DNA from: Candidatus Moraniibacteriota bacterium | GTDB taxonomy: Bacteria > Patescibacteriota > Minisyncoccia > Moranbacterales > UBA2206 | Assembly (NCBI GenBank): GCA_030645735.1 | Contig: JAUSNP010000004.1 | Location: 10,739-74,738, forward strand | Length of the DNA: 64,000 nucleotides | Direction: 5' to 3' | Shown here: piece after piece, positions 43,572 through 64,000 of the stretch | How the letters are laid out: each line of letters starts with the position of its first letter | Numbering within the stretch: position 1 is the stretch's first letter | The notes under the pieces: model-generated | Database searches by the model: none | Told to the model about the DNA's origin: nothing | Seen by the model: the letters and a program-made list of their open reading frames with translations, nothing else | Translations under genes and position numbers: made by a program

Positions 43572-44561
43572 ATGGTATCATTAAGTAAGGGTTTATTCAA
43601 GACAGATGAAATGAGCAGGATTTCAAATACAAATAGCACAGGAGGATTGGAAATAGATCGCCTAATGGGCGACGATTTTCTTTTTCTCCTCCTTATTCTG
43701 ATTGACTACCCAGAAAAAAATCCCGGCATCCTTGATCCAGCTCCGTTTGGAAAATTTAGATTCAAAAATTTGCAGTGGAAGTATTGTATTGAATTTATAC
43801 TGTTTCTCAAAAATTGTGCTGGCATAAAAGTCACACGAACAAACCAAGACCTTCCCGAAGTTGAAGTTTTTGAGGAATCGATTGAAATTATTCAAAATGG
43901 CATAAATAATTATTTGGAAAAATTCATCTCTGGCGAACTTATCCCCATTGATAAAAATTATTTAAATTTTGAAAAACAGAAAAAATATTTTCTAGAGAAA
44001 ATAAAAACTAAGCTTGAAAATGAAACATCTAAAACGCTTTTTCTTTCTGACAATGAAATTGAAAATGAATATGATTTTTTTGAAAGCATGTTGGCTTTGG
44101 AAAGGCAAAAATATTTAAAAATAAAAAGTGTCACCAATTCCCAAAAGCCAGAAAGCTCTGATTTTTATAAAATAGTTTTTACAATACGATCAAAATTTCA
44201 CAAAAAAGTTAGCGTGCAAAACAAAAAAGTTAGAAGGCTTTCCGTTAAATGCTTTTCAAAAGGAAACTTGGGCTATTTTCGCGTGAAAAAAGAATCCAAA
44301 GAAAAAATCATCGGAAAGGCTAATTCCAGGCCGTTTTTATTATTACAATTTTTAGTCAATCAAGGCATTGGCGAAATAGTATCGTTCCAAAAAGCTTTCA
44401 AGGCCATCAAAGACGGCAAACATTATAAAACAACCTCCCACCTTGTGGATGAAGAATTGGCCGCTCTTATAAATGCTAGGAAAGTTCTGCAGAAAGAGAG
44501 AAAAATACACCCCTTCAAACTAATTATCGGCAAAAAAGACCGCACAATCCGAATGCAATAA
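43572..44561 (+). CDS. Hypothetical protein, about 300 aa, lysine-rich, in the mobile-element-like module. The start is uncertain.
   Basis: A long plus-strand ORF. No catalytic motif was recognised. The C-terminal region is helix-rich. Confidence 0.45.
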   Translation: MVSLSKGLFKTDEMSRISNTNSTGGLEIDRLMGDDFLFLLLILIDYPEKNPGILDPAPFGKFRFKNLQWKYCIEFILFLKNCAGIKVTRTNQDLPEVEVFEESIEIIQNGINNYLEKFISGELIPIDKNYLNFEKQKKYFLEKIKTKLENETSKTLFLSDNEIENEYDFFESMLALERQKYLKIKSVTNSQKPESSDFYKIVFTIRSKFHKKVSVQNKKVRRLSVKCFSKGNLGYFRVKKESKEKIIGKANSRPFLLLQFLVNQGIGEIVSFQKAFKAIKDGKHYKTTSHLVDEELAALINARKVLQKERKIHPFKLIIGKKDRTIRMQ

Positions 44562-44698
44562 ATTAAAATCATTTTATTGATTTTGGAAAAAACAGAGAAT
44601 TCACTCTGTTTTTTCGTTTGAATAAACGAAAAAGTTCAACAGCCAATTCTCTCGTGGCTTGTTTTCTTGACGGCGTGGGGAGCGTTTTATGTAATGCA

Positions 44699-44896
44699 GT
44701 CATGCAAGAACAATTTTCACCACACCTCATAGAAAAATGCCAAAAGCTCGTTTTCAAGCGAGCTGGGGTTCACATCACCGAAGATCAAGCAGGGAGGTGC
44801 TTGGAAAAATTGGCGCGTTTGGCTAAACTGGCTTTCGAGACTCTTGTGGAAAATAAACATAATGCAAAACCCGATGGAAAGAATAATCACAATTGA
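44699..44896 (+). CDS. Small protein of the ELIKKCQ family, copy 3 (..PHLIEKCQKLVFKRAGVHITEDQAGRCLEKLARL..)
   Basis: The start is placed at the internal Met by alignment with copies 1 and 2. Confidence 0.5.
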   Translation, partial: VMQEQFSPHLIEKCQKLVFKRAGVHITEDQAGRCLEKLARLAKLAFETLVENKHNAKPDGKNNHN

Positions 44897-45173
44897 TAAA
44901 AATGCCCGCTTAAAAATCATTTGCGGAAGCATAATGTTGCAATATAGGAAAAAATCCAAAACAAAGCAAATAGCGTGGCACACAGACGGCCATTTCTCAG
45001 ATTATGCATCAATGGCAGAACATTACATTTCCAACGCGCCATACCGCGCTATTGAAGGCACAGCGTCAATAGAAAAGCTGATTGAAGTCGTCCAGCAGTC
45101 GAGCGACCAAATCAGCCGAGTTTTGAAAAATAATCAATTAAATGGAAAATCACATGGAAAATCAAACCGATGA
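44862..45173 (+). CDS. Hypothetical small protein
   Basis: An ORF of about 100 aa that overlaps the end of the preceding gene, with a start at an internal Met. Confidence 0.35.
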   Translation: MQNPMERIITIDKNARLKIICGSIMLQYRKKSKTKQIAWHTDGHFSDYASMAEHYISNAPYRAIEGTASIEKLIEVVQQSSDQISRVLKNNQLNGKSHGKSNR

Positions 45174-45375
45174 GACTACGAATGAAGAATTCAATCAAAT
45201 ACCAGCTGGTGAGAAACTCTGCCCGCTCATGAATGGATTCTACAAGGGCATTCCTTGCACTTCAGATTGTGCCCTGTATCGTGAGGGTAAGAATGAAAAT
45301 GCATGTGCTTTGCATGAACTGAGATCGATCAGTTGGTTCATGAAGCAGAGCCAGGACAAAAAGCCCATTGATTAA
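45142..45375 (+). CDS. Small Cys-motif protein (LCPL...C..DC family), copy a
   Basis: A 77-aa ORF containing ...EKLCPLMNGFYKGIPCTSDCALY...C.... Confidence 0.45.
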   Translation: MENHMENQTDETTNEEFNQIPAGEKLCPLMNGFYKGIPCTSDCALYREGKNENACALHELRSISWFMKQSQDKKPID

Positions 45376-45416
45376 ATCAATGGGCTTAAAAAAATAATTA
45401 TTAACTACACAATCAA

Positions 45417-45662
45417 ATGGCTATGGTCAAGATTGAGGGCTTCCTCAAAAAGCTGGAAAAATTGCCGTTGAGCGAGCTATGCCCGCTCATCGACAATGTG
45501 AAGTGGAACTGCGGAAAATTAGACAAAGGCAATGAGCCATGCTGTCATAATACCTATAAATATATGAACTGTCCGCATTTCAAAAAATGGTTCTATTGGA
45601 ATGTGACCCGGATGGTTGCCAAAGAAATCGCCAAACTGGAAATTAGTCAAAAGAAAAAGTAA
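45417..45662 (+). CDS. Small Cys-motif protein (LCPL...C..CC..C family), copy b, a paralog of 45142-45375
   Basis: An 81-aa ORF containing ...SELCPLIDNVKWNCGKLDKGNEPCCHNTYKYMNCPHF.... Confidence 0.45.
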   Translation: MAMVKIEGFLKKLEKLPLSELCPLIDNVKWNCGKLDKGNEPCCHNTYKYMNCPHFKKWFYWNVTRMVAKEIAKLEISQKKK

Positions 45663-45702
45663 CCAAAAAGAAATGTAAATAATACTTACTTACTAAAGGT
45701 AC

Positions 45703-45744
45703 AGTAACTAGTAAGTAAGTATGGTTTTAAAAACTTTTTCTTTG
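45703..45744. promoter_or_regulatory. 14-bp perfect inverted repeat hairpin (atacttacttacta / tagtaagtaagtat) directly after the Cys-protein gene. It may be a terminator or a recombination/operator site.
   Basis: Read from the sequence. It is followed by GGTTTT. Confidence 0.5.
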
Positions 45745-46856
45745 AGAAATCTCTCTAACTGAAAAACTGAAACGACCTAAAAATCCCTCTGTCGCGCGAA
45801 AAATGCTACGCTATGCACATTTAAAAGGCTCGGATAAGCCAAAGTTATGGGAATTAAAAATGACGGTGATCCGCCGCGCGCTGGCAACGAACCACTGACT
45901 TGAAAAAATGCACAAATCTTGGCAGAGGCGCAGCGGAAAGGGCGCCAGAGGACAAAAAAATTGGAGCAATCTTTGAGAAGACGCATTTTTGCCGGAACAA
46001 TGACGGCCATCCGGAATTGGACGGAAAAATGCAAGCGACGAGAAGTTGAAACGATTTTGTTTGGCCTCGGGTTCGCACTCCCCTCGCCTTGGGGCGAGGG
46101 GTTGGGGGTGTGGGGAAATCCAAAGTGCGGAAAAGGATTGATGTCCTACAACGGGCATTCTTGCGACACCCCTTTTTTCTCAAAAATCGGGGAAAGCTTG
46201 GACACGATTTTTGCAAGAAAAAAGAGCGTGTTCGCAAAATGCCTCGTTGTGGGAGGGTGAGAAAAAGACAGTCCTTTAGTTTTCAAAGTGAAGTTTTTTT
46301 CGAATCCCCTTGCGTCAATCCTTTTCCTTCCTTGCGGGGAAAGAGATTGAGAAGACCGCCAAGGTTTTCTCACTACTAAAGCAGTTTGACCGCAACCTTT
46401 ATAAATTGTGCAGGATGAAACAGTGGCATTGGAAAAGTCTGATTAGATATTTGGCAGTCTGGAATTTTCGCCGCGAAAAGTTCCAGTCTGCCAAATTCCT
46501 TGAATGAAAACATTTTCCAAGGACACTGTTTCTTTCTGCTTTCCTTTTTGATTGGTTGCGGGAAAACTACCCTTATTTTAGGGGGTTATCCATAGAATAA
46601 AAATATGTTATTATACATATGGACACAAATTAATATTCATCAGAACACAATCGGTGCGATTTTTTTTCGTATCGAGAAAAGGGCGACTTTCGCTTCAAGT
46701 TCTGATGAAGAATTTGTGTCCAGCGAGGTCGTCCTTTTGTTTGGGCGAAAAACAAAAAAATTATGGACACAAACTTATTACTCAGCGATTCACCGGCAGA
46801 CTTGCCAACCATATTGATGTTTTTTGGAACATTTATTTTTATAATTTTTATGGAAT

Positions 46857-48443
46857 ATGGAAACGATAAAAACAAAAACAAATAAACCAAAATTTGTCAT
46901 CTATGCCCGTAAGTCATCAGAAGACAATAGCAAACAAGTGCATTCGATTGATGCGCAGATTTTTGTCATGAAAGACATTGCCAAACATGAAGGCATTCAG
47001 ATTGTGGAAATCTTTCAAGAATCAAAATCCGCCAAAGAACCTGGGCGGCCGGTTTTCAACAAGATGATCGAGCAATTCAAGAAAAACAAATATGATGGCA
47101 TTCTCTGCTGGAAAATTGACCGCTTGGCGAGAAATCCGGTGGACGCCGGAATTGTGCAATGGCTTTTGCAGAAAAATTCCATCCAGCAGATTATCACCAG
47201 CGACCGAAAATATAATCCGGAAGATAATGTCATTATTGCCAGCGTAGAATTCGGAATGTCGAATCAGTATATTTTGGATTTGTCTAAAAATGTGAAACGC
47301 GGTTTGGCGGAGAAAGTTCGGCGCGGAGAATATCCCGGGCCGGTGCCACTCGGATATTTGCGAGATTTCAAAACTAAAAAGATTATCCTAGATCCTGACA
47401 AAGCGCACTATATCAAACGAGCCTACCAACTTTATTCAACTGGCCTTTATTCTATCGACCAGCTCACGGAAAAACTGAACAATGAAGGCTTGCGCTCTTT
47501 GCACAGCCAAAGAGTCCAGCCATCAATTATTGGGCGCATGCTGAATAATCCAATTTATTATGGCTGGTTTGAATGGAAGGGCCAACTTTGCCCGGGCAAG
47601 CACGCGCCAATCATCTCCAAGGACATTTTTGACAAGGTGGACGAGATAATGTTTCCGCAGAGGGTTATGAAACGGAAAGATAAGCGAAAGTTCACTTTTC
47701 GCGGCCTTTTGCGTTGCGGTGAGTGTGGGTTGAAGATAACCGCGGAGGTGCGGAAAGGCCACACCTATTATCGTTGCACGAAATCCAGAGGCACCAACAA
47801 ATGCTCCCAAAGATATGTGCGTGAAGAGGCTCTGGACGAAGAAATCAACCGCAAGCTATCTGAGCTCAACTTTGATCCGGAAGTGACTGAGCTGGCCATT
47901 TTGGCGCTCAAAGACCAAAACAGAAACCAACTGCAACAGCAAATTGAAATCCAAAGAAAGAACGAGGAACTGCTCCGCAAGAACCGAGAATCGCAAGACA
48001 TCCTCGTCAATCGCTTTTTGGACAATCTCGTGCCAGAGGATATTTATAATCGCCGGCTGACAGGCTTGCGCAACGATGAAGCACGGTTGGATGAAATAAT
48101 CCAAAACACCAAAGACAACACACGCAACGCTTTTGATAAGATTGAAACGATTGTGCGCTTTTCCCAATTAGCCAATGAAATATTTACAAATGGAACTCCG
48201 GTAGCGAAGAAAGAAGTGGCTGGCATAATATCTTCGGACATCACTTTGAAAGATAGAAAAATCCTTGATTTTAGCCTTGATGTTGAATTTCAATGGATGA
48301 TAGATGATATGAATGACTCGTTTGCCCTAAACCACAAAATTGCAATCTTGGAACCAGTCACTTTAGCTTTAGAAAAAGCAAAAGCAGGCATTGAGTTGCC
48401 TGCTAAAAGCGTTGTGCGGGGCTGGCCGGACTCGAACCGGTGA
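46857..48443 (+). CDS. Large serine recombinase (phage-integrase type). It has a resolvase catalytic domain, a recombinase domain and a zinc-ribbon domain.
   Basis: The N-terminus is ..FVIYARKSSEDNSKQVHSIDAQ.. with the catalytic Ser motif, followed by ..ILCWKIDRLARN... The zinc ribbon is ..CGECGLKIT...YYRCTK..C.. and a long coiled coil follows. The last roughly 25 nt of the ORF overlap the 3' end of tRNA-Asp. Confidence 0.9.
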   Translation: METIKTKTNKPKFVIYARKSSEDNSKQVHSIDAQIFVMKDIAKHEGIQIVEIFQESKSAKEPGRPVFNKMIEQFKKNKYDGILCWKIDRLARNPVDAGIVQWLLQKNSIQQIITSDRKYNPEDNVIIASVEFGMSNQYILDLSKNVKRGLAEKVRRGEYPGPVPLGYLRDFKTKKIILDPDKAHYIKRAYQLYSTGLYSIDQLTEKLNNEGLRSLHSQRVQPSIIGRMLNNPIYYGWFEWKGQLCPGKHAPIISKDIFDKVDEIMFPQRVMKRKDKRKFTFRGLLRCGECGLKITAEVRKGHTYYRCTKSRGTNKCSQRYVREEALDEEINRKLSELNFDPEVTELAILALKDQNRNQLQQQIEIQRKNEELLRKNRESQDILVNRFLDNLVPEDIYNRRLTGLRNDEARLDEIIQNTKDNTRNAFDKIETIVRFSQLANEIFTNGTPVAKKEVAGIISSDITLKDRKILDFSLDVEFQWMIDDMNDSFALNHKIAILEPVTLALEKAKAGIELPAKSVVRGWPDSNR

Positions 48444-48490
48444 CCTACTGCGTGACAGGCAGTCGCTCTAACCAACTGAGCTACAGCCCC
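48417..48490 (-). tRNA. tRNA-Asp (anticodon GTC)
   Basis: The reverse complement is GGGGCTGTAGCTCAGTTGGTTAGAGCGACTGCCTGTCACGCAGTAGGTCACCGGTTCGAGTCCGGCCAGCCCC plus a discriminator. The cloverleaf and the anticodon loop CTGTCAC were checked by eye. Confidence 0.8.
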
Positions 48491-48513
48491 ATTTGTCTAT
48501 TCTATTTTTAACT

Positions 48514-48576
48514 TTGCGTAACCTACTGCGTGGCAGTCCCGAGTACTCGGGATCTGACCAACTGAGCTACAGCCCC
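48514..48576 (-). pseudogene. Truncated pseudo-tRNA-Asp fragment. It comprises the 5' acceptor and D arm, an 18-nt palindrome, and an anticodon-stem remnant, and has no T arm.
   Basis: The reverse complement is GGGGCTGTAGCTCAGTTGGTCAGA-tcccgagtactcggga-CTGCCACGCAGTAGGTTACGCAA. It duplicates the 5' half of the adjacent tRNA-Asp. Confidence 0.5.
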
Positions 48577-48604
48577 ATAATTTGTCTATTTTATTTTCAA
48601 CCCG

Positions 48605-48678
48605 TAGCAGGGGTGAGATTCGAACTCACGACCTCAGCGTTATGAGTGCTGTGCTCTAACCAACTGAGCTACCCGGCC
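48605..48678 (-). tRNA. tRNA-Met, or tRNA-Ile2 with lysidine (anticodon CAT), probably the elongator
   Basis: The reverse complement is GGCCGGGTAGCTCAGTTGGTTAGAGCACAGCACTCATAACGCTGAGGTCGTGAGTTCGAATCTCACCCCTGCTA. There is one acceptor-stem mismatch. Confidence 0.7.
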
Positions 48679-48700
48679 ATGCTTTTTATTCCAATTTATG

Positions 48701-48772
48701 TTGCGGGGGCAGGATTCGAACCTGCAACCTCATGGTTATGAGCCATACGAGCTGCCATTGCTCTACCCCGCT
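48701..48772 (-). tRNA. Initiator-like tRNA-Met (anticodon CAT), with a 1-72 mismatch and strong resemblance to tRNA-fMet
   Basis: The reverse complement is AGCGGGGTAGAGCAATGGCAGCTCGTATGGCTCATAACCATGAGGTTGCAGGTTCGAATCCTGCCCCCGCAA. Compare with E. coli fMet: CGCGGGG...CTCATAA...CCCCCGCAACCA. Confidence 0.7.
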
Positions 48773-51230: not shown

Positions 51231-51232
51231 AA

Positions 51233-51362
51233 ATTACAAATTCAAAATTACAAGCTCCAAATAAATTCAAAATTACAATTTTCAAAATTCAAAATAGTTT
51301 TGGATTTTAGATTTTGGTTATTGTAGTTTATTTGGAATTTGAGATTTTGGATTTTAGATTTA
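51233..51362. repeat. Intergenic palindromic repeat element, copy 2, homologous to 35141-35290
   Basis: Near-identical blocks aaattcaaaattacaattttcaaaattcaaaa and ttggttattgtagtttatttggaatttgagattttggattttagattt. Confidence 0.7.
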
Positions 51363-51368
51363 AAATTA

Positions 51369-53546
<2,178 letters not shown>

Positions 53547-53694
53547 CTAATTATAGCATACCCAGCAAAATAAAAAGTAGAGTCTCGTAACTCCGCTTTT
53601 TGAAGATATTTTATCAAAACTTACTTAGCTTACTTGGGACGGTTCTAGGTAATATATCGAAAAAGCTCCGAAGATTAAATCTTCGGAGCTAAAA

Positions 53695-54780
53695 TTAGTC
53701 CTTGATGCATCTTACTGAAGTTCCATAGCCTCGTCCAGAAGAATCACGAAAAATTTTAACCCTATTTGAACTCAAGCTACGAAACCAAGTACTGCTCGCT
53801 AAGCGCGGAGATGATGTCCAAAAATATACTTCAACTCCACGCTCCCAAAAATTACCATTTTGAAGACGGCTTCCAGATAAAAGCGCGGTGAAACCACTTG
53901 AATTATTTCCATTTAATGTTTCCGTAGAAAGCTTACTGCCTTCATTCACACCGCGCCAAGCAGAAATTTTATCCGCCTCAAGTTGAGTCATCCCAAGTTC
54001 CATTTCCAATGTTTTATATTCACCGTCTGTTGGCAAGTGCCAACTATCAGGACAAACACCCTGTGCACCCTCCACAGTTGATCCATTCATAGCTGCACTC
54101 CATTGATACAAAAAGCCAAGTTTATTATTTTTTATATTGGTTAGTGTTTCTTCGGCTGTTCCCGCCAAATTAGATGGGTACGCATAATATCCATTATCAC
54201 TACCATCCCAGGTGGGGGCTGTTGGGCCACGAACAATCGAAGTCCCATTAGGATACTTAGTAGTCTGAAGACTTTCTTTCATCCAGCATTGTGAGCCAAT
54301 TTGTACAGTTCCATATTCATTACCCTCTACATCAATTAGTTTACCACCACAACCAGGGGCAACCGCTGTCTCAATTGATCGTTGCATATCACTGCCTGTA
54401 CCGACTGATTTTATGGCGACAATCTTATCTAAGGTGTCTGTGCAAACTGCGACAATTTCATTGCCAGGATTGGCTGGATCGTCTTTTTTAAGTTCAACCA
54501 CAAATCCTGCTCCGGTAACTTTTCCGCCACTGCAAGGCAACCCCAAATCATTGCCAGTCTTTGTGCTGACAGTTCGATTTGTCAGAATGGCATCCATCAA
54601 TTTTTCAATACCCGTATCCGCGGTTTGATAGGCTTGGTTGGATTTATTAGATCCAAGTGAAGCCTTCCTTTCCTTGAGAGATACAATGGCGATACTTAGA
54701 GATGAGGTTAATACAATTCCCAAAATCATCATAGTGACAATCAGAATTGAAGCTTTAAAATTTTTTATTTTTTTAGTCAT
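53695..54780 (-). CDS. Membrane-anchored protein with a C-terminal FISUMP domain (Fibrobacter succinogenes major paralogous domain, TIGR02145-like), at the head of the pilus locus
   Basis: An N-terminal TM helix. The C-terminal motifs are ..GTVQIGSQCWMKESL.., ..GFLYQW.., ..CPDSWHLPTDGEYKTLE.., ..YFWTSS.., ..GTSVRCIKD. Confidence 0.7.
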   Translation of the reverse strand: MTKKIKNFKASILIVTMMILGIVLTSSLSIAIVSLKERKASLGSNKSNQAYQTADTGIEKLMDAILTNRTVSTKTGNDLGLPCSGGKVTGAGFVVELKKDDPANPGNEIVAVCTDTLDKIVAIKSVGTGSDMQRSIETAVAPGCGGKLIDVEGNEYGTVQIGSQCWMKESLQTTKYPNGTSIVRGPTAPTWDGSDNGYYAYPSNLAGTAEETLTNIKNNKLGFLYQWSAAMNGSTVEGAQGVCPDSWHLPTDGEYKTLEMELGMTQLEADKISAWRGVNEGSKLSTETLNGNNSSGFTALLSGSRLQNGNFWERGVEVYFWTSSPRLASSTWFRSLSSNRVKIFRDSSGRGYGTSVRCIKD

Positions 54781-54795
54781 ATTTTTCTATTAATT

Positions 54796-55374
54796 TTATG
54801 GAGCTACCTCTTGATAGTCCCTCAATGAAACAGCTGACTGAATCGCCACTTCATCTCCAGCTTCTCCCGTGCACACATTATTATAGCAAATATGCAAAGA
54901 AATTGTGACTCTGGCAACTGGCACGCTAGCAGATTTAACCACGAAAAAATTTGCACTATTAAGCGATCCGCTTATCATGTCAGAATAACTACTGCTAAAG
55001 TTGCAGATTGGAGTCACTTCGGGCGTTCCAGAATTTGTCCATGTTCCTGCCCTAGATTGTAATTTAGGACTGCTAAAATTATATTCTAAACAGCTATTTC
55101 GAGAATAATCAAAAAATTGCAGATTTTGAACTGGGGTTCTGTCAATTGGATTCAAAACCGTGCTAGTTCGCAAAGTTTTTGACATTTGTTCTATAGCAAA
55201 TCTAGCATTCTCCGTGTCCTGTTGCAACATTCTGGCTTTTTTACGCACACTCACCACACTCACAAAAGTCGACACCATCGTGGTCATCAACAAAGAAAAA
55301 ACAAAAATCGCCACAATCATTTCCATCAATGAAAATCCTTTATATTTTGATTTTAGATTTGTCCCAGATTTCAT
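54796..55374 (-). CDS. Pseudopilin/minor pilin (prepilin-type N-terminal cleavage/methylation domain)
   Basis: ..KYKG|FSLMEMIVAIFVFSLL.. matches the class III leader G|F(S/T)L(I/M/V)E consensus. Confidence 0.7.
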   Translation of the reverse strand: MKSGTNLKSKYKGFSLMEMIVAIFVFSLLMTTMVSTFVSVVSVRKKARMLQQDTENARFAIEQMSKTLRTSTVLNPIDRTPVQNLQFFDYSRNSCLEYNFSSPKLQSRAGTWTNSGTPEVTPICNFSSSYSDMISGSLNSANFFVVKSASVPVARVTISLHICYNNVCTGEAGDEVAIQSAVSLRDYQEVAP

Positions 55375-55411
55375 TATAAATTAGAAATTATAAATTAGAA
55401 ATTGCGCACAC

Positions 55412-55999
55412 CTACTCGCCCCAACTACTGAGCGTTGTTTCAGTATAGACACATTTATTTTTTGTATTACAATCAGCGTTGCTAGCCGGGAAAGATCCAT
55501 TCCAAGCTACCATGCTGATGACTGTTCGGTCTGTAGCTCCTGAAATAATCAACTTTCGATAAAATTTTGTTGCTGTTGAATTAACTGAAGAGTGCCCATA
55601 AAATCCAGTTGAATCAATATATAGCCGTTTAGCTGGAACACCTGCGGTGCAATCAATCGACGCAGGATAGGCATATGATTTATCTATGCGACAATCACCG
55701 CCTAACACAAAATGCGCAAATGATTTTCCAGCATCAGCCGTCGCCCAATTGTTATCCCGCACATTTCGCACCAATTCAATACCTTCCTGAGCCAATCCGC
55801 TAGCAATCGACTGATCGCGTGAATCTAATGATTCTGTCAGGCCCTTACTCAACAATTGCAAAGAAGCCAACAGTCCAATTGAAACTAAAAATACGGAAAA
55901 CAAAACCTCTACTAAAGAAAAGCCCTGCCTATTCGACTGTCCAGCAGATAAACGACTTTGTTTTTTAATCATACTATTGTCTGCTAATGTTTTTTGCAT
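55412..55999 (-). CDS. Pseudopilin/minor pilin
   Basis: ..SNRQG|FSLVEVLFSVFLVSIGLLA.. Confidence 0.7.
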   Translation of the reverse strand: MQKTLADNSMIKKQSRLSAGQSNRQGFSLVEVLFSVFLVSIGLLASLQLLSKGLTESLDSRDQSIASGLAQEGIELVRNVRDNNWATADAGKSFAHFVLGGDCRIDKSYAYPASIDCTAGVPAKRLYIDSTGFYGHSSVNSTATKFYRKLIISGATDRTVISMVAWNGSFPASNADCNTKNKCVYTETTLSSWGE

Positions 56000-56000
56000 A

Positions 56001-56546
56001 CTAATTTTCTACTATATTTCCAGTTGAGCTTATGGTGACTGATTTAGTAGCGCCTGTGCCAGCTGGATATTGGAGCACAATTAATTGATCGCCAACTAGT
56101 GTTAAACCATCCTTACCCAAAACATTTCCAAACGGAATTGCAAAATAAATTTCCGTGTCCGCAGAGACGGCAGGACTACTTAAAACCACATTGTTTCCGA
56201 GTTGCAAATTTTCCATCTGATTAAAAGAAGTAAAGTTGGTGTCGCTACAATCTTTGCCTGAATTTGGCAATTTATAAAAAATTTCATACTTGCTTGTATC
56301 AGTAAATCTGAAACCATAACCGCATGGTGTTTGTCCGCCCTGCATTCTTCCTTGCAAAGCATAGCTCTGCGCTAGTCTAATTGTCGTGGCTACTTCTCGT
56401 TGCGCAGTTACTAATCGCGTCGTGCTTTTTGACGATTGTAAAGACGCAAAACCCACTCCACCCATAATCCCCATTATTGCAATCGTGATGATAAGCTCGA
56501 GAAATGAAAAGCCATTATATTTTTTTACAATTTCCATTGAATTCAA
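56001..56546 (-). CDS. Pseudopilin/minor pilin
   Basis: ..KKYNG|FSFLELIITIAIMGIM.. Confidence 0.7.
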   Translation of the reverse strand: MNSMEIVKKYNGFSFLELIITIAIMGIMGGVGFASLQSSKSTTRLVTAQREVATTIRLAQSYALQGRMQGGQTPCGYGFRFTDTSKYEIFYKLPNSGKDCSDTNFTSFNQMENLQLGNNVVLSSPAVSADTEIYFAIPFGNVLGKDGLTLVGDQLIVLQYPAGTGATKSVTISSTGNIVEN

Positions 56547-56566
56547 TTCGTTAATGCGTTAATGTC

Positions 56567-57391
56567 CTAAAAGAATAATCCGAAATACCAATCCACGATT
56601 GGCTGATACCAAAACATTGCAATTAGCGACCCCAAAACCAAAAATGGCGCAAACGGGATTTGACTGCTCATCTTTTTCTGTTTCAATGCAATTAAAATGA
56701 TGCCAAAAATTGCTCCCAATGAGAAGGCCAGCATCAGCGCCAAAAGAATATTTGGCCAACCCAGAATGAGCCCCAGCAAAATCACCAAATAGGCATCGCC
56801 CATGCCCATCCATTTCTCTTTGGAAATTGCCACCATGGCAAAGAAAAAGGCAAAAGCCACCACCGCGCCCAATGTCCCAGAATAAACCAAACTATCCAAA
56901 ACACCTATTCCCCCTTGACCTCCTACACTTCCTGTTAGTCCCGTCGTCGCCCAATCAAAAAACAAATTGAATACAATCGCGAAACCAATTGCCGGCCACA
57001 ACGCCAAGCCTGGAATTTCCATATACAGGAAGTCATAAACAAAAATCACCATCAAGAAACTCACGATACCAAGATAATAAACTGTGCTAGCCCAAGTTGA
57101 AACATCAATTACATCAAAAAATTTGTAGCCGATTACCGCAAATAGGAGTCCAGTGAATATTTCTACCAATGGATATTGCCAAGAAATTTTTGTTTTGCAA
57201 TTTCTACATCTAAATTTCAATAAAATGAAACTGATGACTGGAATGTTATCGTACCACGCGATAGTTGCTTTGCAATGCGTACAATGCGAGCGCCCTGTCA
57301 CAAATGATTCCGCCAAATTCAAACGATAGACTACCACATTCAAAAAACTACCCACAATCAATCCCAGCACGAAGAAAATTAATATCATCAT
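56567..57391 (-). CDS. pilD: Prepilin peptidase (A24 family)
   Basis: A polytopic membrane protein. The N-terminal Zn-binding tetracysteine is ..CTHCKATIAWYDNIPVISFILLKFRCRNCKTKI... There is a conserved Asp-containing loop ..GMGDAYL... Confidence 0.85.
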   Translation of the reverse strand: MMILIFFVLGLIVGSFLNVVVYRLNLAESFVTGRSHCTHCKATIAWYDNIPVISFILLKFRCRNCKTKISWQYPLVEIFTGLLFAVIGYKFFDVIDVSTWASTVYYLGIVSFLMVIFVYDFLYMEIPGLALWPAIGFAIVFNLFFDWATTGLTGSVGGQGGIGVLDSLVYSGTLGAVVAFAFFFAMVAISKEKWMGMGDAYLVILLGLILGWPNILLALMLAFSLGAIFGIILIALKQKKMSSQIPFAPFLVLGSLIAMFWYQPIVDWYFGLFF

Positions 57392-57412
57392 ATTTTTTGA
57401 ATTATTGTTTAA

Positions 57413-57814
57413 TTATTCGCAAATTTGTCCTGTACAACTACATGCTATAAAGGTGTTGCCTAATTTAGTCATATCAGATCCTATATTAACCTTAAAGCTA
57501 CAATTGACTGAATCATAGCCGATTCCAGCATCATAAGTATAGCCATAAGAAAGCGCTGGCCACTTAGCACCCGCAAGCCCAACGGCTGTATTACAAATAT
57601 TTACATCTGCTGAGGGAGAACTAACCGAACCACCACCATCTTTACAGGCAATTATAGCCGGCAAAACAGTTTTTATCGAGGTCTTAACCCCATTTATTCT
57701 AGCATTTTTACGCGCCTGATTCACACTGACCAAAACAGCTATCGCCAAAATAGCAATGATGGCAACAACTACTAATAATTCTATTAATGTAAAACCCTGC
57801 CTGCGATCAGACAT
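57413..57814 (-). CDS. Type IV pilin
   Basis: The leader is MSDRRQG|[20 protein letters not shown]. The start is chosen at MSDRRQG. The ORF upstream of that point is hydrophobic and unlikely to be a leader. Confidence 0.75.
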
Positions 57815-57970
57815 GGCTCTTTTATTTTGCATAAAAATATTGAATCCATAAAATATTATAACCCCGTACAAACTCTAATTTTAACTACGCGATAAACGAA
57901 ATTGATAATTAAAGCTGGTGCGGGGCTTGCCAATTTCGCCTAGGCGGACAAATTGGCAAGCAAAAACTAA

Positions 57971-58354
57971 CTAGGGTTTACTACAGCCTACTTGAGTACA
58001 AGTGATTACGACAGTTGAAGCGTCTGTGGCAGTATAACTGAATGTTCCAGCAGCAGGATCTGATGTTGCAGCTCCTCCCCATGCTCCGCCGTTTCCAGCA
58101 ATAGCCGGCCATACAGAAGTTGAACCTGCGCACATAGCAACGCCCGCAGTTGGACCTGCAAGAGCCAAGCCATCATCCATACACATAACTCCACCAGCTA
58201 CAGTGCTACTAACTGAAGCATAGATAGCTGCGTCCTTAGCCTTTATTCTTGCAGAATTCAAACTAACCAAAACGATTGACGCTAAAATACCAATGATGGC
58301 AATTACGATCAAAAGTTCAATCAAGGTGAAACCTCGCATTATTTTATTTTTCAT
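57971..58354 (-). CDS. Type IV pilin, a candidate major pilin
   Basis: MKNKIMRG|[24 protein letters not shown]... It is 127 aa, Gly/Ala/Thr-rich, and has a C-terminal Cys pair. Confidence 0.8.
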
Positions 58355-58376
58355 ATATTCACCCGCCTTTCTAGCT

Positions 58377-58396
58377 AATCCCGAGTACTCGGGATT
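58377..58396. promoter_or_regulatory. 20-nt perfect palindrome aatcccgagtactcgggatt in the pilin 5' leader/promoter region. It is a candidate operator or leader hairpin.
   Basis: Read directly from the sequence. The 16-nt core recurs inside the pseudo-tRNA-Asp at 48537-48552. Confidence 0.6.
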
Positions 58397-58487
58397 CTAT
58401 TAATTCTTATCTCTATCTTAAAATCATGTTTTCAAAAAATATTCCGTGAAATCAAGTGTGCTCAGGTACTAATCAGTGGTTCGGAAA

Positions 58488-59702
58488 CTACATCTGACCT
58501 GCAATATTGTAAATTGGCATAATCACAGAAAAGGACAGGAATGCCACGGCCACGCCAATCGCCACCATCAACAATGGTTCAATCAAAGTTGAAAGGTTTT
58601 TAGCCATATTATCAGCTTCTTGTTCATAGAATCTGGCCACATGCGCCAAAACGGAATCGATTTGTCCAGACTCTTCACCAATTCGCACCATCTGTGAAAC
58701 AATGGCTGGAATTTGCGGAGATCGGCGCAAAACATCACTCATTGAGCCACCAATGCGAACTTCGTCAGCCGCTTTCAAAAAAATAGATTCATATACAACA
58801 TTATCAATCACTGAACTTACGATATTCAAAGATTGAATAATTGGAATTCCGCCAGACAACAGCACAGCTAGATTGTCGGCAAACCTCGCCACATATAAAT
58901 TTTGATAAATTTTGCCAAAGATAGGCAATTTAATTTTTATTTGATCCCATTCTCTTGAACCATCTTCACTCTTGATATAATATACAACTCCGCCAACAAA
59001 TAAAATAATTGCGACTGCGATTGCCCACCAATAACTAGCCATGAAATCACTAATCACAATAATCACTTGTGTATACCAAGGCACGACGATATCCGGACCC
59101 ATATCTTTAATCATTACTGTCAATTTTGGAACTACAAAAGAAACTACTAAAAAAGCAATTACGAAAAAAACTACCAACACAATAATTGGATACATCATTG
59201 CCGACTTAATTTTAGTCGATAGTTTATAATTTTTTTCAATATTATCCGCCACATACTCTATCGACCTTTTCAGATTGCCTGAAACCTCCCCAGCCTTGAT
59301 GATATTGATGGCTAGACTTGAAAAGATGTCTCTATGTTTTTTCAACGCATCAGAAAAGGGCAATCCGTCTTGCACATCACCGACCATTTCAGCAATTATT
59401 TTTTGAAAATATTTATTCTCAATTTGTTCCTTAATTGCATTCAGGGAAGATACTATCGGAACCTTTGCTTCTATAAGAATTGCTAGCTGTCTGAAAAAAA
59501 CCATCAATTCACGCGTATCAACTCTATCAAGATACTTCAGAAATATCTTTTCAATTGAGTCATTATTCCCCTCCTCCTTAATCGCCAACGGAAACAGATC
59601 ATTTTTTTGAAGCAACTCAATCGCGACTTCGCTACTGGCGGCCTCAATAACTCCTTCTTTCAACTCGCCACCTTTATTTTTAGCCTTGAATAGAAATTTC
59701 AT
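58488..59702 (-). CDS. pilC: Type IV pilus inner-membrane platform protein (GspF/PilC family)
   Basis: A 404-aa protein with two T2SS-F repeats and three TM segments, positioned between the pilin and pilT. Confidence 0.85.
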   Translation of the reverse strand: MKFLFKAKNKGGELKEGVIEAASSEVAIELLQKNDLFPLAIKEEGNNDSIEKIFLKYLDRVDTRELMVFFRQLAILIEAKVPIVSSLNAIKEQIENKYFQKIIAEMVGDVQDGLPFSDALKKHRDIFSSLAINIIKAGEVSGNLKRSIEYVADNIEKNYKLSTKIKSAMMYPIIVLVVFFVIAFLVVSFVVPKLTVMIKDMGPDIVVPWYTQVIIVISDFMASYWWAIAVAIILFVGGVVYYIKSEDGSREWDQIKIKLPIFGKIYQNLYVARFADNLAVLLSGGIPIIQSLNIVSSVIDNVVYESIFLKAADEVRIGGSMSDVLRRSPQIPAIVSQMVRIGEESGQIDSVLAHVARFYEQEADNMAKNLSTLIEPLLMVAIGVAVAFLSFSVIMPIYNIAGQM

Positions 59703-59773
59703 TTTTTTATTTTATTTACCCACTGATTCTATATTTATTATACACCAGAAAATCAAAAAAATACACGGCTAAC

Positions 59774-60847
59774 CTATCGAAGCAACGACTGGAAATCACC
59801 TGGATTTTTCGCGAAGGAAACAGCAGTGTCAATGGAGATTATTCCTCGTCTTGCAAAATCAGCTAGAGATTTATCCATAGTCACCATGCCTTGATCAGAA
59901 CCTGTTTCAATTATATTATCTATTTGATAAGTCTTGCCTTCGCGAATCAAATTTTCAATAGCATGATTTTTAATCATAATTTCCACCGCTGGAATTCGCC
60001 CGCCATCAACTTTTGGAACCAATCTTTGTGAAATTACGCCCAAAAGTGAATTTGCAAGCTGAGCGCGCACTTGATTTTGTTGATGAGACGGGAAAACATC
60101 AATGATTCGATCAATTGTTTGCGCCGCATCATTCGTGTGCAGTGTGGCAAAAATCAAATGTCCGGTTTCCGCTCCAGTCATAGCAATGCTGATACTATCC
60201 AGATCTCGCAATTCGCCCACCAAAACTACATTGGCGTCCTCACGAAAAACTGCTTTAAGCGCCGATTGAAATGACTTGGAATCTTGATAGACTTCTCTTT
60301 GATTGATAATGCTTTTGTCCTGCTCATATATATATTCAATTGGATCTTCGATAGTGATGATGTGCTTTTCTTGGTTATGATTTATCTCATTAATGAGAGC
60401 TGCCAGGGTTGTGGATTTTCCATGTCCCACCGGTCCTACTACCAACACAAGTCCTTGCGTAAATTTAGTGAAATCATACAGAACTTCTGGCATATTCAGT
60501 TCATCCAGACGCCTAATTTCTTTCGGAATAAGCCGCATCGCTACACTAACATAACCTTGTTGAAAAAATATGTTTACACGAAATCTAGCCTTGTCCTCAA
60601 AATTGTATGACAAGTCAATTTGCCCTTCGGCTAAAAACTTTTTCTTTTTTTCTTCACCCAAAATCACATCTGCCATAGCCTGCGTGTCTGCTGGAGTCAG
60701 AATGCCATCTTGATTCAATGGAAAGAGACGTCCATCAACTCGCAAAGTAGGATGCCTACCTACCACTAAGTGCAGATCTGATGCTCCTTGTTGCGCCACC
60801 AGTCTCATTAAATTTTTTATTTGCTGTTCAGTATGTACTGTCCCCAT
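59774..60847 (-). CDS. pilT: Type IV pilus retraction ATPase PilT
   Basis: A 357-aa protein. Walker A is ..GLVLVVGPVGHGKSTTLAALI... There is an Asp box and a His box. Its size is typical of PilT rather than PilB. Confidence 0.85.
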   Translation of the reverse strand: MGTVHTEQQIKNLMRLVAQQGASDLHLVVGRHPTLRVDGRLFPLNQDGILTPADTQAMADVILGEEKKKKFLAEGQIDLSYNFEDKARFRVNIFFQQGYVSVAMRLIPKEIRRLDELNMPEVLYDFTKFTQGLVLVVGPVGHGKSTTLAALINEINHNQEKHIITIEDPIEYIYEQDKSIINQREVYQDSKSFQSALKAVFREDANVVLVGELRDLDSISIAMTGAETGHLIFATLHTNDAAQTIDRIIDVFPSHQQNQVRAQLANSLLGVISQRLVPKVDGGRIPAVEIMIKNHAIENLIREGKTYQIDNIIETGSDQGMVTMDKSLADFARRGIISIDTAVSFAKNPGDFQSLLR

Positions 60848-60948
60848 AAAATTTCACTCTCACATCAATCAAGGATCTAAAAAAATTAATCCAAAATATA
60901 ATCCGAGGTAGGTTTATTTTTTATTTTATACTTTTTTATTTATATGGC

Positions 60949-61353
60949 TTAATCTATGTCAGAGACTTGCTCTTCTTTATCTAAATAAATTCTAATCTTT
61001 GCTAGAACCTCGGATGGCGTGAAATGCGATTTAATTAAATAGTCATCTGCGCCTAAAATCATCCCCTGGTCGATATCCTCCTTCTGACTTAAATTTGTCA
61101 ACAAAATTATTGGGATTTTTTTCAACCTGTCATTATTTTTTATTTTCTCCAAAACTTCCAGTCCGTTTACGAACGGCATTATGATATCTAACAAAATAAG
61201 ATCTGGTTTGCAATCAATTTTTTCTAGTTTTTCCAATGCCTCCATTCCGTTATTAGCCGCTATAATGTCAAAGCCTTCTAGAGACAACTTCGTTTGGTAA
61301 ATATCCATCACGAAAGAATCGTCCTCAATAATCATGATAGTTTTTTTTGCCAT
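60949..61353 (-). CDS. Single-domain response regulator (CheY-like receiver, PilH/PilG-like)
   Basis: ..IMIIEDDSFV.. (acidic pocket), ..LILLDIIMP.. (phospho-acceptor Asp), ..PIILLTNLS.. (T/S), and ..DYLIKS.. (K). Confidence 0.8.
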   Translation of the reverse strand: MAKKTIMIIEDDSFVMDIYQTKLSLEGFDIIAANNGMEALEKLEKIDCKPDLILLDIIMPFVNGLEVLEKIKNNDRLKKIPIILLTNLSQKEDIDQGMILGADDYLIKSHFTPSEVLAKIRIYLDKEEQVSDID

Positions 61354-61369
61354 ATCTTTTTCTTATTAA

Positions 61370-63034
61370 TTAGTTATTTTCTTCTTCGAGAGAAACCCGG
61401 CTTTCTGTGACCCTTTCAATCTCCTCAATTGTTGTCTTGCCCAAAAATGCCTTCAAAATCCCATCTTGTCGCATCGTTAAAAACCCTAGCCTATCTCGTT
61501 CTTCGGTCAATAGATTTTCATTGCCTCTTTTCTCAATAATAATATTTCGCATAGCTTCTGTTATTCTAACGACCTCAAAAATAGCTAGCCGTCCGCTAAG
61601 CCCCGTGCCATTGCAGGCATCACAGCCACTGCCCTTGAAAAACTTAATTTCTTTTGACAAATCTATGCCATATTTATTCAATTCATCTGTCGAAATATTC
61701 TCCACTTCTTTCATAAGCATATCTCTAGTAGATTCTGCCAGATCAACTTCAATTTTGCAGTTTTCACAAATTTTTCGCACCAATCTTTGCGCCATCACAA
61801 GTCGCAGTGATGATGATAGCAAAAATGGCTCAATGCCCATGTCAATCATTCGTGGAATTGCCCCGATTGCCGTGTTGGTGTGCAAAGTTGAAAACATCAG
61901 ATGACCAGTGAGCGCAGCATGAACTGCCAATTCGGCTGTTTCACCATCGCGAATTTCTCCAACCATAATGATGTTCGGGTCTTGTCGCAAAATCGTGCGC
62001 AGTCCCGAGGCAAAGGTGTAGCCAATTTCTGGTTTGATTTGACTTTGATTTAGACCCTCAATATTATATTCGATTGGATCCTCCAAGGTTATAATATTCC
62101 GTTCCTCATTGTTCAAAATTTTTAGCATTGCATACAGAGTTGTCGATTTTCCTGAACCAGTTGGACCAGTCATCAAAATCATTCCATAGGTTTCTTTGAT
62201 AGCAGCCTGCATATTTTCTAAGGCTAAGCCCATCAGCCCCATTGATTCAACATCGCTCACGCCCTTATCCTTATCTAAGATTCTCATCACAATCTTTTCA
62301 CCATCAATAACTGGCAAGGTCGAAACACGAAAATCTATTGGATTGCCATTGTGCGAAAGTTGAAAACGACCATCCTGCGGCTTTCTTTTTTCATCAATTT
62401 TCAAATTGGAAAGAATTTTTATTCTCGATATTACAACTGGTCCGATTTCTTTGGGAATAATCAGACTCACATGCAAAACTCCATCTACCCGAAATCTCAC
62501 TCGGTAATCCCTGTCCATTGGCTCAATGTGAATATCACTGGCGTGTCCTTCAATCGCATGGCTCACAATAACTTGCACTAACTTCGCTACAGGAGCTTCT
62601 TTAAGGATTTGCTCATTGCTCCGATCAGTGTGGCTGGAATCACTGGCCTCATCAAATTTAACATCTTCAGAAAATGACCTGACTGCCTCCTTGACCATCT
62701 CTGCCGGTCCAGCATAAAAGGCAAACAACTCTTCAAGAATTTTTTCAGAAACTAAATAAATATTAATTTCCCTTTTTTCCTTCTCCGCAATGAAGCGCAA
62801 CATATTGAGCGCGTTTATATCCTGCGGATCAATCATAGCAACCTGTATAGCGTTGCTATCTCTTCCAAATACCACGATTCTGTTTTTCTTAGCAACTTCT
62901 TCGGGGATAATATTAATAACACTATTATCAATAACTTTAGGCGTCTTATCTAAATAGGCCACGCCTAATGAGGCCGCCTTGCTTGCGAAATCATCTCGTT
63001 CAGCTTGAATATTATTATTTTTGATATCACTCAT
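61370..63034 (-). CDS. pilB: Type IV pilus assembly ATPase PilB (GspE family)
   Basis: A 554-aa protein. It has an N-terminal GspII_E_N-like domain. Walker A is ..GMILMTGPTGSGKSTTLYAML... A tetracysteine (..CENCK...C..C..) is present. Confidence 0.9.
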   Translation of the reverse strand: MSDIKNNNIQAERDDFASKAASLGVAYLDKTPKVIDNSVINIIPEEVAKKNRIVVFGRDSNAIQVAMIDPQDINALNMLRFIAEKEKREINIYLVSEKILEELFAFYAGPAEMVKEAVRSFSEDVKFDEASDSSHTDRSNEQILKEAPVAKLVQVIVSHAIEGHASDIHIEPMDRDYRVRFRVDGVLHVSLIIPKEIGPVVISRIKILSNLKIDEKRKPQDGRFQLSHNGNPIDFRVSTLPVIDGEKIVMRILDKDKGVSDVESMGLMGLALENMQAAIKETYGMILMTGPTGSGKSTTLYAMLKILNNEERNIITLEDPIEYNIEGLNQSQIKPEIGYTFASGLRTILRQDPNIIMVGEIRDGETAELAVHAALTGHLMFSTLHTNTAIGAIPRMIDMGIEPFLLSSSLRLVMAQRLVRKICENCKIEVDLAESTRDMLMKEVENISTDELNKYGIDLSKEIKFFKGSGCDACNGTGLSGRLAIFEVVRITEAMRNIIIEKRGNENLLTEERDRLGFLTMRQDGILKAFLGKTTIEEIERVTESRVSLEEENN

Positions 63035-63073
63035 ATATAATGATTTACGATGTTGGGAGGATAAGCGAGCTGA

Positions 63074-63811
63074 TTATAGGACGAATGGGTTCGATCTACC
63101 CAGGGATCCTGCGTCAACTTTAGACATATCTACGCTTGTTTTATTTTTAATATCTTCTACCACATTCATATCAAATTTTCCATCTGCGAATATCTTTCTG
63201 TCGACATTGGCAACCGATGTAATCTTATTTAAATAATTGAAGGTTACTATCACTTTCGCCATCAGCGTATCATCATCAGCATTAGCGTCTCTTTTTATTT
63301 CGAGAGCTGAAATATTATTAAATCTTTTTAACGCGGATAATAATAAAATAAATTTCTTTATTTCTCCATAATCACCAGCGATTTCAATTTCAACTTTAAA
63401 ATTATCAACTAAACTCTCGGTTGACGGGGCATCCAACATCCCATCAACAACTTCTGCATTTTTAATCTTAGCATCTTTCAACACATCTTTTGTTGATATG
63501 CTGGCAATCAAAAGATCCGCTGATGAAGCTATGGAGTTTAAGCTATTAATGACCTCTTCATCTTGTTTTGCATCTGGCAAATACTGACGCAGCACTGTCT
63601 GCTGATCAGAGTTATAGTTCAAATCATTTGCAAGCTTAACTGCGTTCTCCCCCTTCATATTTATATCAACCAGCCTAGCCTCAGCTTTTACTAAGTTATC
63701 TTTGGCAGAATTAACACCATTTTGGCCAGCATATGCTGGAATAATAACCCAAATGACCAAATACAATCCGTACAACATTATTACAGGAGCAAACAATAAT
63801 TTTAATTTCAT
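63074..63811 (-). CDS. PilO/PilN-like bitopic pilus alignment protein
   Basis: A 245-aa protein with an N-terminal TM helix and a coiled-coil/periplasmic domain. It sits upstream of pilB in the T4P locus. The assignment rests on context and topology only. Confidence 0.4.
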   Translation of the reverse strand: MKLKLLFAPVIMLYGLYLVIWVIIPAYAGQNGVNSAKDNLVKAEARLVDINMKGENAVKLANDLNYNSDQQTVLRQYLPDAKQDEEVINSLNSIASSADLLIASISTKDVLKDAKIKNAEVVDGMLDAPSTESLVDNFKVEIEIAGDYGEIKKFILLLSALKRFNNISALEIKRDANADDDTLMAKVIVTFNYLNKITSVANVDRKIFADGKFDMNVVEDIKNKTSVDMSKVDAGSLGRSNPFVL

Positions 63812-63842
63812 AATGTTATCGACTCAAAAGAGTCATATTTAA

Positions 63843-64000
63843 ATTATTTAGATCTTATGCTGATTGAAAAATTAATTTTCCCATTTTCTCCTATTTTAGC
63901 GCTTCCAATGGTTACATCTGAAAAGGCTTCTGAATGCTTGAAACTCAAAATCTGTCTAGCTATGGCATCATAATTATCAGCTATGCATTCTAATTCAAGT
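63843..64000 (-). CDS. C-terminal part of another pilus-locus ORF (possibly PilN/PilM), truncated by the window edge
   Basis: The frame is open to the window edge and ends ...DVTIGSAKIGENGKINFSISIRSK*. Confidence 0.3.

Follow-up and report, generated by a model that had tools for sequence, protein, structure and literature searches.

A probable K-type minor pilin with an appended FISUMP module, and a receiver encoded between pilB and pilT, in a type IVa-like pilus operon of Candidatus Moranbacteria

The 64,000-nucleotide stretch of DNA analyzed here (contig JAUSNP010000004.1; hereafter the window) carries, on the minus strand of positions 53695-64000, a type IVa-like pilus operon that is conserved in Moranbacteria/Parcubacteria, runs in the order pilM-N-O-B-receiver-T-C-pilins-D-H-I-J-K, and is represented in the window by its 3' two-thirds. 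The last gene of this operon (53695..54780, minus strand) encodes a 361-residue protein that joins a pilin module to a FISUMP (Fib_succ_major) module. We read this protein as the K subunit (GspK/PilX class) of the H-I-J-K set of minor pilins because it is encoded in the fourth position after three other minor pilins, lacks Glu5, has a pilin fold, and belongs to a family with homology to PilX_N; the first three properties are seen in the protein itself, and the fourth at the level of its family. Taken as a whole, the explanation that we favor, and hold to be somewhat better than an even bet, is that this K subunit with its grafted FISUMP module caps the pilus tip, and that a response-regulator receiver encoded between pilB and pilT serves as a pilus switch. 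An initial annotation of the same DNA had likened the organism to Saccharibacteria; an exact protein match (P0001) places it in Candidatus Moranbacteria, and both lineages are members of the CPR (Candidate Phyla Radiation).

The N-terminus of the 361-residue protein reads MTKKIKNFKA/SILIVTMMILGIVL (here and below, a slash marks the predicted cleavage site), in which a short basic leader and a small residue at position -1 precede about 20 hydrophobic residues forming alpha1N. The five other pilins of the locus all follow the pattern G/F-[ST]-[LF]-[ILVM]-E, and this protein, with A/SILIV, is the only one without Glu5; its position +5 is Val, and it has no match to the N_methyl profile (PF07963). 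In H-I-J-K operons, K (GspK/PilX) is the member that lacks Glu5 and caps the tip complex that primes assembly (PMC7541494, PMC9934059), and since K-class subunits lack Glu5, the missing N_methyl match is the expected exception. The open reading frames (ORFs) of the three genes upstream were searched with Pfam and NCBIfam profiles (including TIGR) at curated or gathering cutoffs, and each has an N_methyl match. The first, in the H position (56001..56546, minus strand, as for every gene of the operon; G/FSFLE), has GspH as its best NCBIfam match (TIGR01708, E 4e-7, below cutoff); the second, in the I position (55412..55999; G/FSLVE), best matches PilV, the GspI equivalent (TIGR02523, E 1e-10, 42.2 bits against a cutoff of 52.2); and the third, in the J position (54796..55374; G/FSLME), shows weak matches to ComGE, ComGF, HpsB and GspJ, all below cutoff. 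Searches of PDB sequences with these three proteins gave no informative match. The intergenic gaps within the H-I-J-K cassette measure 1-37 nt, and K keeps its place as the fourth gene, behind three minor pilins, in at least ten loci.

The predicted structure supports the same assignment. Our final AlphaFold2 (AF2) model was built from a 143-sequence alignment and reaches a predicted local distance difference test score (pLDDT) of 92.7 and a predicted template-modeling score (pTM) of 0.76; a model from an 8-sequence alignment was unusable, at pLDDT 45. In the final model, a 60-residue alpha1 helix (residues 9-68) is followed by a sheet of four to five strands (87-139) and, past a short linker, by a separate domain spanning residues 147-361. 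Its N-terminal domain is a pilin "lollipop", a long helix on an antiparallel beta-sheet, and matches pilins and pseudopilins. We define the pilin module as residues 1-143 (54352..54780, minus strand), with the N-terminus K-A/S-I-L-I-V and a conserved pair of cysteines, Cys83 and Cys113. The protein had been described as membrane-anchored; the segment in question is more than a simple anchor, being an N-terminus of the prepilin type.

This pilin module defines a large family. A profile of residues 1-143 identifies 4,197 representative clusters among 1.84 billion proteins, and in the best 150 of these 4,197, which we use for all family statistics, the domain is N-terminal in proteins with total lengths of 128-954 residues. 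Residues 1-143 used as a single query retrieve stand-alone proteins of 215-241 residues without FISUMP, a 4-sequence alignment of the domain used as a profile retrieves 4 genome loci, and the N-domain profile finds nothing among PDB sequences beyond transmembrane-helix noise. Position -1 is Ala in 95 and Gly in 54 of the 150 representatives (149/150 together), position -2 is Lys or Arg in 134, position +1 is Ser in 148, and position +5 is Val or Phe; a K/R-[AG]-S-x-L motif is fixed across the family. Over the same residues, PilX_N (PF14341) matches 85 of the 150 at E<=0.01 (best E 2e-8), and the syntenic ortholog in locus L096 carries a precomputed PilX_N+Laminin_G_3 annotation.

The FISUMP module (residues 147-361; 53698..54342, minus strand) is identified at high scores by two profiles: PF09603 matches residues 159-360 with 124.1 bits (cutoff 33.9) over its full length (1-187 of 187), and TIGR02145 matches with 99.5 bits against a cutoff of 41.65. 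Among the FISUMP motifs listed in the initial annotation, GFLYQW, YFWTSS and VRCIKD are present as described, whereas the protein has CWMKESL in place of the ENL form and CPDSWHLP in place of GWHLP. Four cysteines (C144, C165, C243 and C358) are invariant in the FISUMP alignment, a pattern that would be consistent with extracellular disulfides. The modeled C-terminal domain has a C-type-lectin (CLec)/FGE-like fold; its best structural match is the variable binding protein TvpA, and its other matches include the Lcl C-terminal domain, the Bd2740 fibre tip, TaqVP, Mtd, and dozens of animal C-type-lectin-like domains. We know of no ligand for FISUMP domains of this fold. The earlier suggestion of a pilus-associated tip adhesin is partly supported, but on our reading the protein is not a separate adhesin docking on pseudopilins: it is itself the fourth minor pilin.

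Several observations weigh against reading the protein as a tip-located, adhesive K subunit. It scores 12.9 bits (E 0.12) on PilX_N, against a gathering cutoff of 25.5; its residue at -1 is Ala, where Gly is canonical, and its cleavage by PilD is a prediction; and the H, I and J labels of its neighbors derive from sub-threshold matches and gene order. Most FISUMP proteins, moreover, are not pilins. Among the 119 closest FISUMP homologs about nine are pilin fusions, six with a canonical prepilin N-terminus bearing the G/FTLIE N_methyl motif (P0012, P0024, P0028, P0053, P0085 and P0119) and three of the PilX_N type, and the remainder have ordinary signal or anchor segments. One of the PilX_N-type proteins, P0002, which represents the closest FISUMP-bearing paralog type, adjoins a TraG/VirD4-like gene with no pilin cassette. 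Finally, the FGE/CLec fold also holds enzymes (FGE, EgtB and PvdO), and it is by interpretation that we assign binding rather than catalysis to the module.

Some of these observations would also fit a signal-anchored surface lectin or adhesin that is co-transcribed with the pilus genes and not polymerized, with FISUMP acting at the cell surface. The Ala at -1 and the sub-threshold PilX_N score point in this direction, as do the many close FISUMP homologs with plain N-terminal transmembrane or signal segments (P0003-P0010) and the TM7x PilX proteins that lack predicted PilD sites (PMC11623550). We nonetheless regard such a protein as quite unlikely: its N-terminal domain is a full pilin lollipop, with the long alpha1 helix and a sheet bearing the conserved cysteine pair, and not a bare transmembrane helix; the K/R-[AG]-S-x-L motif and the PilX_N matches extend across its family; and its position behind three minor pilins is invariant in all of the loci counted above. 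The protein could also be a K minor pilin whose FISUMP module is something other than a host adhesin, such as an FGE/EgtB-like enzyme, a binder of the cell's own envelope or of secreted substrates, or part of a pilus for DNA or nutrient uptake. The enzymes that share the fold lend this alternative some weight, and so does the analogy with GspK of the type II secretion system, which has been proposed to contact substrates. Against it stand the identity of the best fold match as a variable binding protein, with many binding proteins and adhesins among the further matches, and the alternative modules found at the same site in relatives (Laminin_G_3 and vWA), which are classical binding modules and fit adhesion; nor do we know of any catalytic residues in FISUMP domains. 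On this evidence a non-adhesive module seems rather improbable, and we retain the reading of a K subunit that carries a binding module.

Comparison with relatives shows how this K subunit may have been assembled. The cassette PilD-H-I-J-K-LigA(-GatC-GatA) is conserved in loci L001, L008 and L010-L014, and the full order PilM-N-O-B-receiver-T-C-pilins-D-H-I-J-K in L012, L095, L096 and L097. At the K gene itself, the encoded C-terminus is FISUMP in the window and in L001 (protein P0008), Laminin_G_3 in L013, L014 and L096, a Cys-rich module of about 130 residues in L012, and a tail of about 70-95 residues in L008, L010 and L011. Among the 150 family representatives, the modules recognizable with Pfam are Laminin_G_3 (9), FISUMP (3), and vWA, Peptidase_S74 and Lcl_C (1 each). 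The two halves of the window protein have different nearest relatives: its pilin module is closest to K proteins without FISUMP (45-59%) and at 34% to the FISUMP-bearing P0002, and its FISUMP module is 52-54% identical to those of P0002 and P0008 and to those of proteins with non-pilin N-termini. K proteins without FISUMP occur in genomes whose LigA is 70-77% identical to that of the window, and a K protein with FISUMP occurs in the L001 genome, whose LigA is 44% identical. As far as sequence comparison can tell, module shuffling would fit this pattern better than vertical descent, and such swapping at the K gene probably retargets the pilus. In one of these loci (L013, 5949-8426), an 825-residue Cys-rich secreted protein with a weak fn3 match is encoded between the Laminin_G_3-type K gene and ligA.

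The linkage of FISUMP to pilus loci, which the initial annotation had raised as a check on its tip-adhesin idea, gives a mixed picture: it is seen in the window and in L001, but close relatives hold other modules at the same position, one of the three PilX_N+FISUMP proteins (P0002) lies beside the TraG/VirD4-like gene, and the three canonical prepilin+FISUMP fusions that we looked at (P0085, P0119 and P0028) are encoded by orphan genes, with no pilus locus around them. As a rule, then, FISUMP is not a domain of pili, yet CPR bacteria have repeatedly fused it to pilin modules. The surroundings of these genes vary. On a short contig (L098, 66-3690), P0002, which is the closest full-length homolog of the window protein, is encoded directly after an 823-residue TraG/VirD4-like protein (TrwB_AAD_bind, weak). 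On a Paceibacterota contig (L005/L006), two orphan prepilin+FISUMP genes (4904-6001 and 8001-9050) lie 2 kb apart, one directly downstream of a CHASE-PAS histidine kinase gene and the other followed by genes for a 1063-residue Big_13 protein and a second kinase.

Two further readings bear on how the module varies. The more ambitious, which we put forward tentatively and consider less probable than its negation by a good distance, is that in Moranbacteria and related Parcubacteria K is a fixed genomic socket for recombination-swapped binding modules that chiefly set host choice in an episymbiont, combined with an orphan receiver acting as a Chp-independent phospho-switch directly on the pilus motors. 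The modules concerned (FISUMP, Laminin_G_3, vWA and Cys-rich knobs) are partly shared with non-pilin surface proteins, and their exchange may resemble that of phage receptor-binding proteins. The other casts the FISUMP C-terminus as the variable region in a target of a diversity-generating retroelement (DGR), given that Fib_succ_major/DUF1566 domains form the CLec2 class of DGR targets and that DGRs abound in CPR genomes. The FISUMP gene, however, takes part in none of the window's repeats, and a terminator and ligA directly follow it. Neither sensitive blastn nor an adenine-tolerant scan of the 64 kb turned up a template repeat, the best candidate showing at least 40 non-A mismatches over 137 nt, and window ORFs of at least 110 residues include no reverse transcriptase. 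With neither a template repeat nor a reverse transcriptase in the 64 kb, we reject a DGR for this locus; cis-encoded elements are largely refuted, and we put the remaining chance of such a system close to nil.

Returning to a K subunit with a FISUMP module at the pilus tip, we propose the following mode of action. PilD would process the K protein, cleaving after Ala, and K would nucleate with the three upstream minor pilins on PilC and PilB to prime polymerization of the major pilin. Because K would enter before all other subunits and has no need of Glu5, it would end up capping the filament, leaving the FISUMP module exposed at the very tip. There the module may bind a ligand on the surface of a host or partner cell, with a glycan or other cell-envelope polymer as the likeliest candidate, and retraction by PilT would then pull the two cells together.

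The second element of our proposal is the receiver encoded between pilB and pilT (60949..61353, minus strand), a single-domain protein of 134 residues that matches PF00072 only (E 5e-23) and whose gene starts 16 nt downstream of pilB. Its pocket (E10, D11, D12, D56, T86, Y105 and K108) is of the full CheY type and is kept in 119-120 of 120 orthologs, all of which are single-domain proteins of 65-84% identity. In each of the four orthologous loci that span the region (L012, L095, L096 and L097) a receiver of 67-76% identity sits between PilB and PilT. We found no report of a receiver in this position in Parcubacteria in a literature search. The initial annotation had suggested PilG/PilH-like phospho-control of extension and retraction, and had noted that no cognate kinase is encoded in the window. 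The latter point is borne out: in ORFs of at least 110 residues there is no HisKA and no histidine-kinase HATPase_c domain, the sole HATPase_c match being GyrB. The former holds in part, since the conserved position between PilB and PilT and the near-invariant pocket support a pilus-linked phospho-switch, but membership in the PilG/PilH (Chp) system is not supported because no Chp partners were found and the closest profiles are of the OmpR type. Specifically, no CheA/ChpA, methyl-accepting chemotaxis protein (PilJ) or CheW (PilI) is encoded in the 64-kb window or within 10 kb of the receiver orthologs, and the profiles that the protein matches best describe receiver domains from transcription factors of the OmpR type, not CheY or PilH.

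A receiver without a nearby kinase might serve no motor function at all, and instead act as a phosphate sink or connector for an unrelated two-component pathway, encoded at this site by chance. Besides the OmpR-type profiles and the absence of a kinase in the window, two results favor this alternative: no kinase is encoded within 10 kb of the receiver in the related loci, and a metagenome scan with the receiver returned 80 generic response regulators of no more than 40% identity, none adjoining PilB or PilT. A chance arrangement sits poorly, however, with the strict PilB-PilT position in four of four loci, the short gap to pilB, and the intact pocket of more than 100 single-domain orthologs, and we consider it unlikely. 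A pilus-dedicated phospho-switch would be the most economical reading of this receiver, with the motors as its putative target: once phosphorylated by a kinase encoded elsewhere, it would most likely bias extension versus retraction by protein-protein contact.

The remainder of the locus conforms to type IVa machinery, with PilB, PilT, PilC, PilD, PilM/N/O and pilins all found (PilM from another assembly of the same organism, L099). Positions 53695-64000 hold twelve closely packed minus-strand ORFs separated by gaps of 1-133 nt, in the order PilO-PilB-receiver-PilT-PilC-two pilins-PilD-three minor pilins-FISUMP protein, with PilM and most of PilN off-window. The ORFs, their order and strand are as the initial annotation gave them, and profile searches back every gene assignment. 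Two of its statements about the boundaries need adjustment. It described the locus as beginning at a pilO/N-like gene; the operon begins outside the window: the 3' end of a pilN-like gene lies at 63844..64000, with its start beyond the window and a C-terminus 56% identical over 48 residues to a Pfam-PilN protein of L095, and in L099 PilM and a 174-residue protein are encoded upstream of PilO (PilM-PilN before PilO). It also placed the FISUMP protein at the head of the locus; the gene does belong to the operon but is its last, and an intrinsic terminator closes the operon upstream of ligA. This terminator (53664..53690, read 53690-53664 on the minus strand) begins 5 nt past the FISUMP-gene stop codon and has a 12-bp stem with 6 GC pairs, a 3-nt loop and a TTTTT tail.

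Between these ends lie the gene for a PilO-like alignment-complex protein (63074..63811; PF04350, E 2e-7, 31.7 bits against a cutoff of 22); pilB, encoding the extension ATPase (61370..63034; T2SSE, E 4e-130, with an MshEN N-domain); pilT, encoding the retraction ATPase (59774..60847; TIGR01420, 437.8 bits against a cutoff of 319.1); and pilC, encoding the platform protein (58488..59702; T2SSF in two stretches, E 5.5e-59, with GspF/PilC NCBIfam matches below their equivalog cutoffs). Two pilin genes follow, both encoding G/FTLIE with Glu5 in the translation: one for a protein of 127 residues (57971..58354; N_methyl, E 6e-9) and one with a 152-residue ORF (57413..57871; N_methyl, E 5e-10) whose real start is probably an internal Met. 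The prepilin peptidase gene pilD (56567..57391; A24_N_bact, E 8e-35, and Peptidase_A24, E 1.5e-8) precedes the H-I-J-K cassette. No PilQ secretin is encoded in the 64-kb window. In several related loci, small ORFs matching 23S_rRNA_IVP (PF05635) lie between pilus genes (L008, 1970-2344; L095, 15840-16196 and 18053-18427; L096, 12752-13108), and none is present in the window locus.

Elsewhere in the window, a low-GC (about 35%) island at approximately 35300-48490 encodes a ResIII helicase/endonuclease (38109-40784), an N6_N4 DNA methylase (41372-43534) as well as a large serine recombinase (46857-48443). Three clustered tRNA genes (48417-48772) adjoin the recombinase gene at its 3' end, and the island looks like an integrated mobile element with a restriction-modification system. 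Three giant ORFs (6285-10784, 18281-24610 and 24875-32218; 1499, 2109 and 2447 residues) have no Pfam match, share 300-nt repeats and many units of about 63 nt encoding G-N-V-G-I-G-T, and probably encode surface proteins that are repetitive and paralogous to one another. Two copies, 89% identical, of an AT-rich direct repeat of 133 nt with internal inverted repeats (35136-35268 and 51231-51363) stand directly upstream of gyrB and gatC on the minus strand. A related motif, AATTTCCAA / AAATTACAAATTCAAAA, lies upstream of the L25 gene (11635-11676) and within ligA, contributing a low-complexity insert to the protein (51797-51865); neither the repeat nor the motif has a match in Rfam. A 23S rRNA match (13841-17563) spans 3182 nt against a model of 2925, implying insertions of about 250 nt, with 5S adjacent; no 16S gene is present in the window.

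Moranbacteria are, to our knowledge, uncultivated, and we know of nothing reported on how they recognize partner cells. Our analysis pins a candidate recognition module (residues 147-361) to the one pilus subunit expected at the filament tip, and with the exchange of modules at one locus in relatives, this offers a way to test what sets host range in a large CPR clade. For motor control in organisms without chemosensory systems, the receiver encoded between pilB and pilT makes a simple candidate. None of this overturns current understanding; rather, it fits existing models of the minor-pilin tip complex, and extends the modular pilin concept to a PilX_N-type K subunit, of a kind that surveys based on canonical N_methyl profiles miss.

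The 361-residue protein can be set beside several known pilus subunits. In GspK, an extra alpha-domain is inserted within the pilin beta-sheet, whereas FISUMP is appended at the C-terminus of the window protein, which further departs from GspK/PilX in its Ala at -1 and its score below the PilX_N gathering threshold. PilY1/PilC tip adhesins of diderm type IVa pili are alike in proposed role, as a variable binding module on a minor-pilin tip complex. PilY1 is not a pilin, however, and docks on PilX through a beta-propeller; no PilY1 partner is encoded in the window locus, and the putative adhesin is covalently part of K itself. In Streptococcus sanguinis, the modular pilins PilB (vWA) and PilC (ConA-like lectin) are adhesins (PMC8179133, PMC9934059), and they share with the window protein a small pilin module that a short linker joins to a binding module, for which exposure at the tip is predicted; the K family described here also includes members with Laminin_G_3 and vWA modules. 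The streptococcal PilB and PilC are canonical class III pilins with Glu5, and it is PilA that lacks this residue, whereas here the modular subunit itself is the one without Glu5, and its module is FISUMP.

Fusions of prepilins to IPR011871, presumably the entry of FISUMP/Fib_succ_major, offer a further parallel. In the survey of Raynaud et al. 2021 (Dataset S1), the architecture IPR012902 - IPR011871 comprises 40 proteins and is the fifth most frequent among modular pilins, with 'no clear function'. These proteins, mostly from CPR bacteria, presumably share with ours a pilin N-terminus joined to FISUMP; they differ in having a canonical G/FTLIE motif, and the three examined are orphans, whereas the window protein has a PilX_N-type N-terminus and lies in an H-I-J-K cassette. 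The survey would have missed the window protein because of this N-terminus. At the level of architecture, the window protein also resembles PilX1 and PilX2 of the Saccharibacteria strain TM7x. These are CPR minor pilins whose signal is non-canonical and whose large C-terminal domain is lectin-like; they are proposed to be tip adhesins, and pilX2 is required for efficient host binding (PMC11623550). Their modules are a beta-jelly-roll and a seven-bladed beta-propeller, and they come from another phylum. The variable proteins of DGRs that share the CLec fold (TvpA, TaqVP, Mtd and Legionella LdtA) differ from the window protein in that no reverse transcriptase or template repeat accompanies it in the window.

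The receiver, for its part, resembles PilG and PilH of the Pseudomonas Chp system as a stand-alone CheY-like protein with an intact pocket and a tie to the control of extension and retraction, but its gene is embedded between pilB and pilT and not in a che-like operon with CheA/ChpA, chemoreceptor and CheW genes nearby. Earlier work has already described modular pilins, fusions of prepilins to FISUMP, and, in Saccharibacteria, PilX proteins with lectin-like modules. The Moranbacteria operon stands apart in three respects: the module sits on K itself, the subunit without Glu5; the module is FISUMP; and relatives appear to swap it at a fixed locus.

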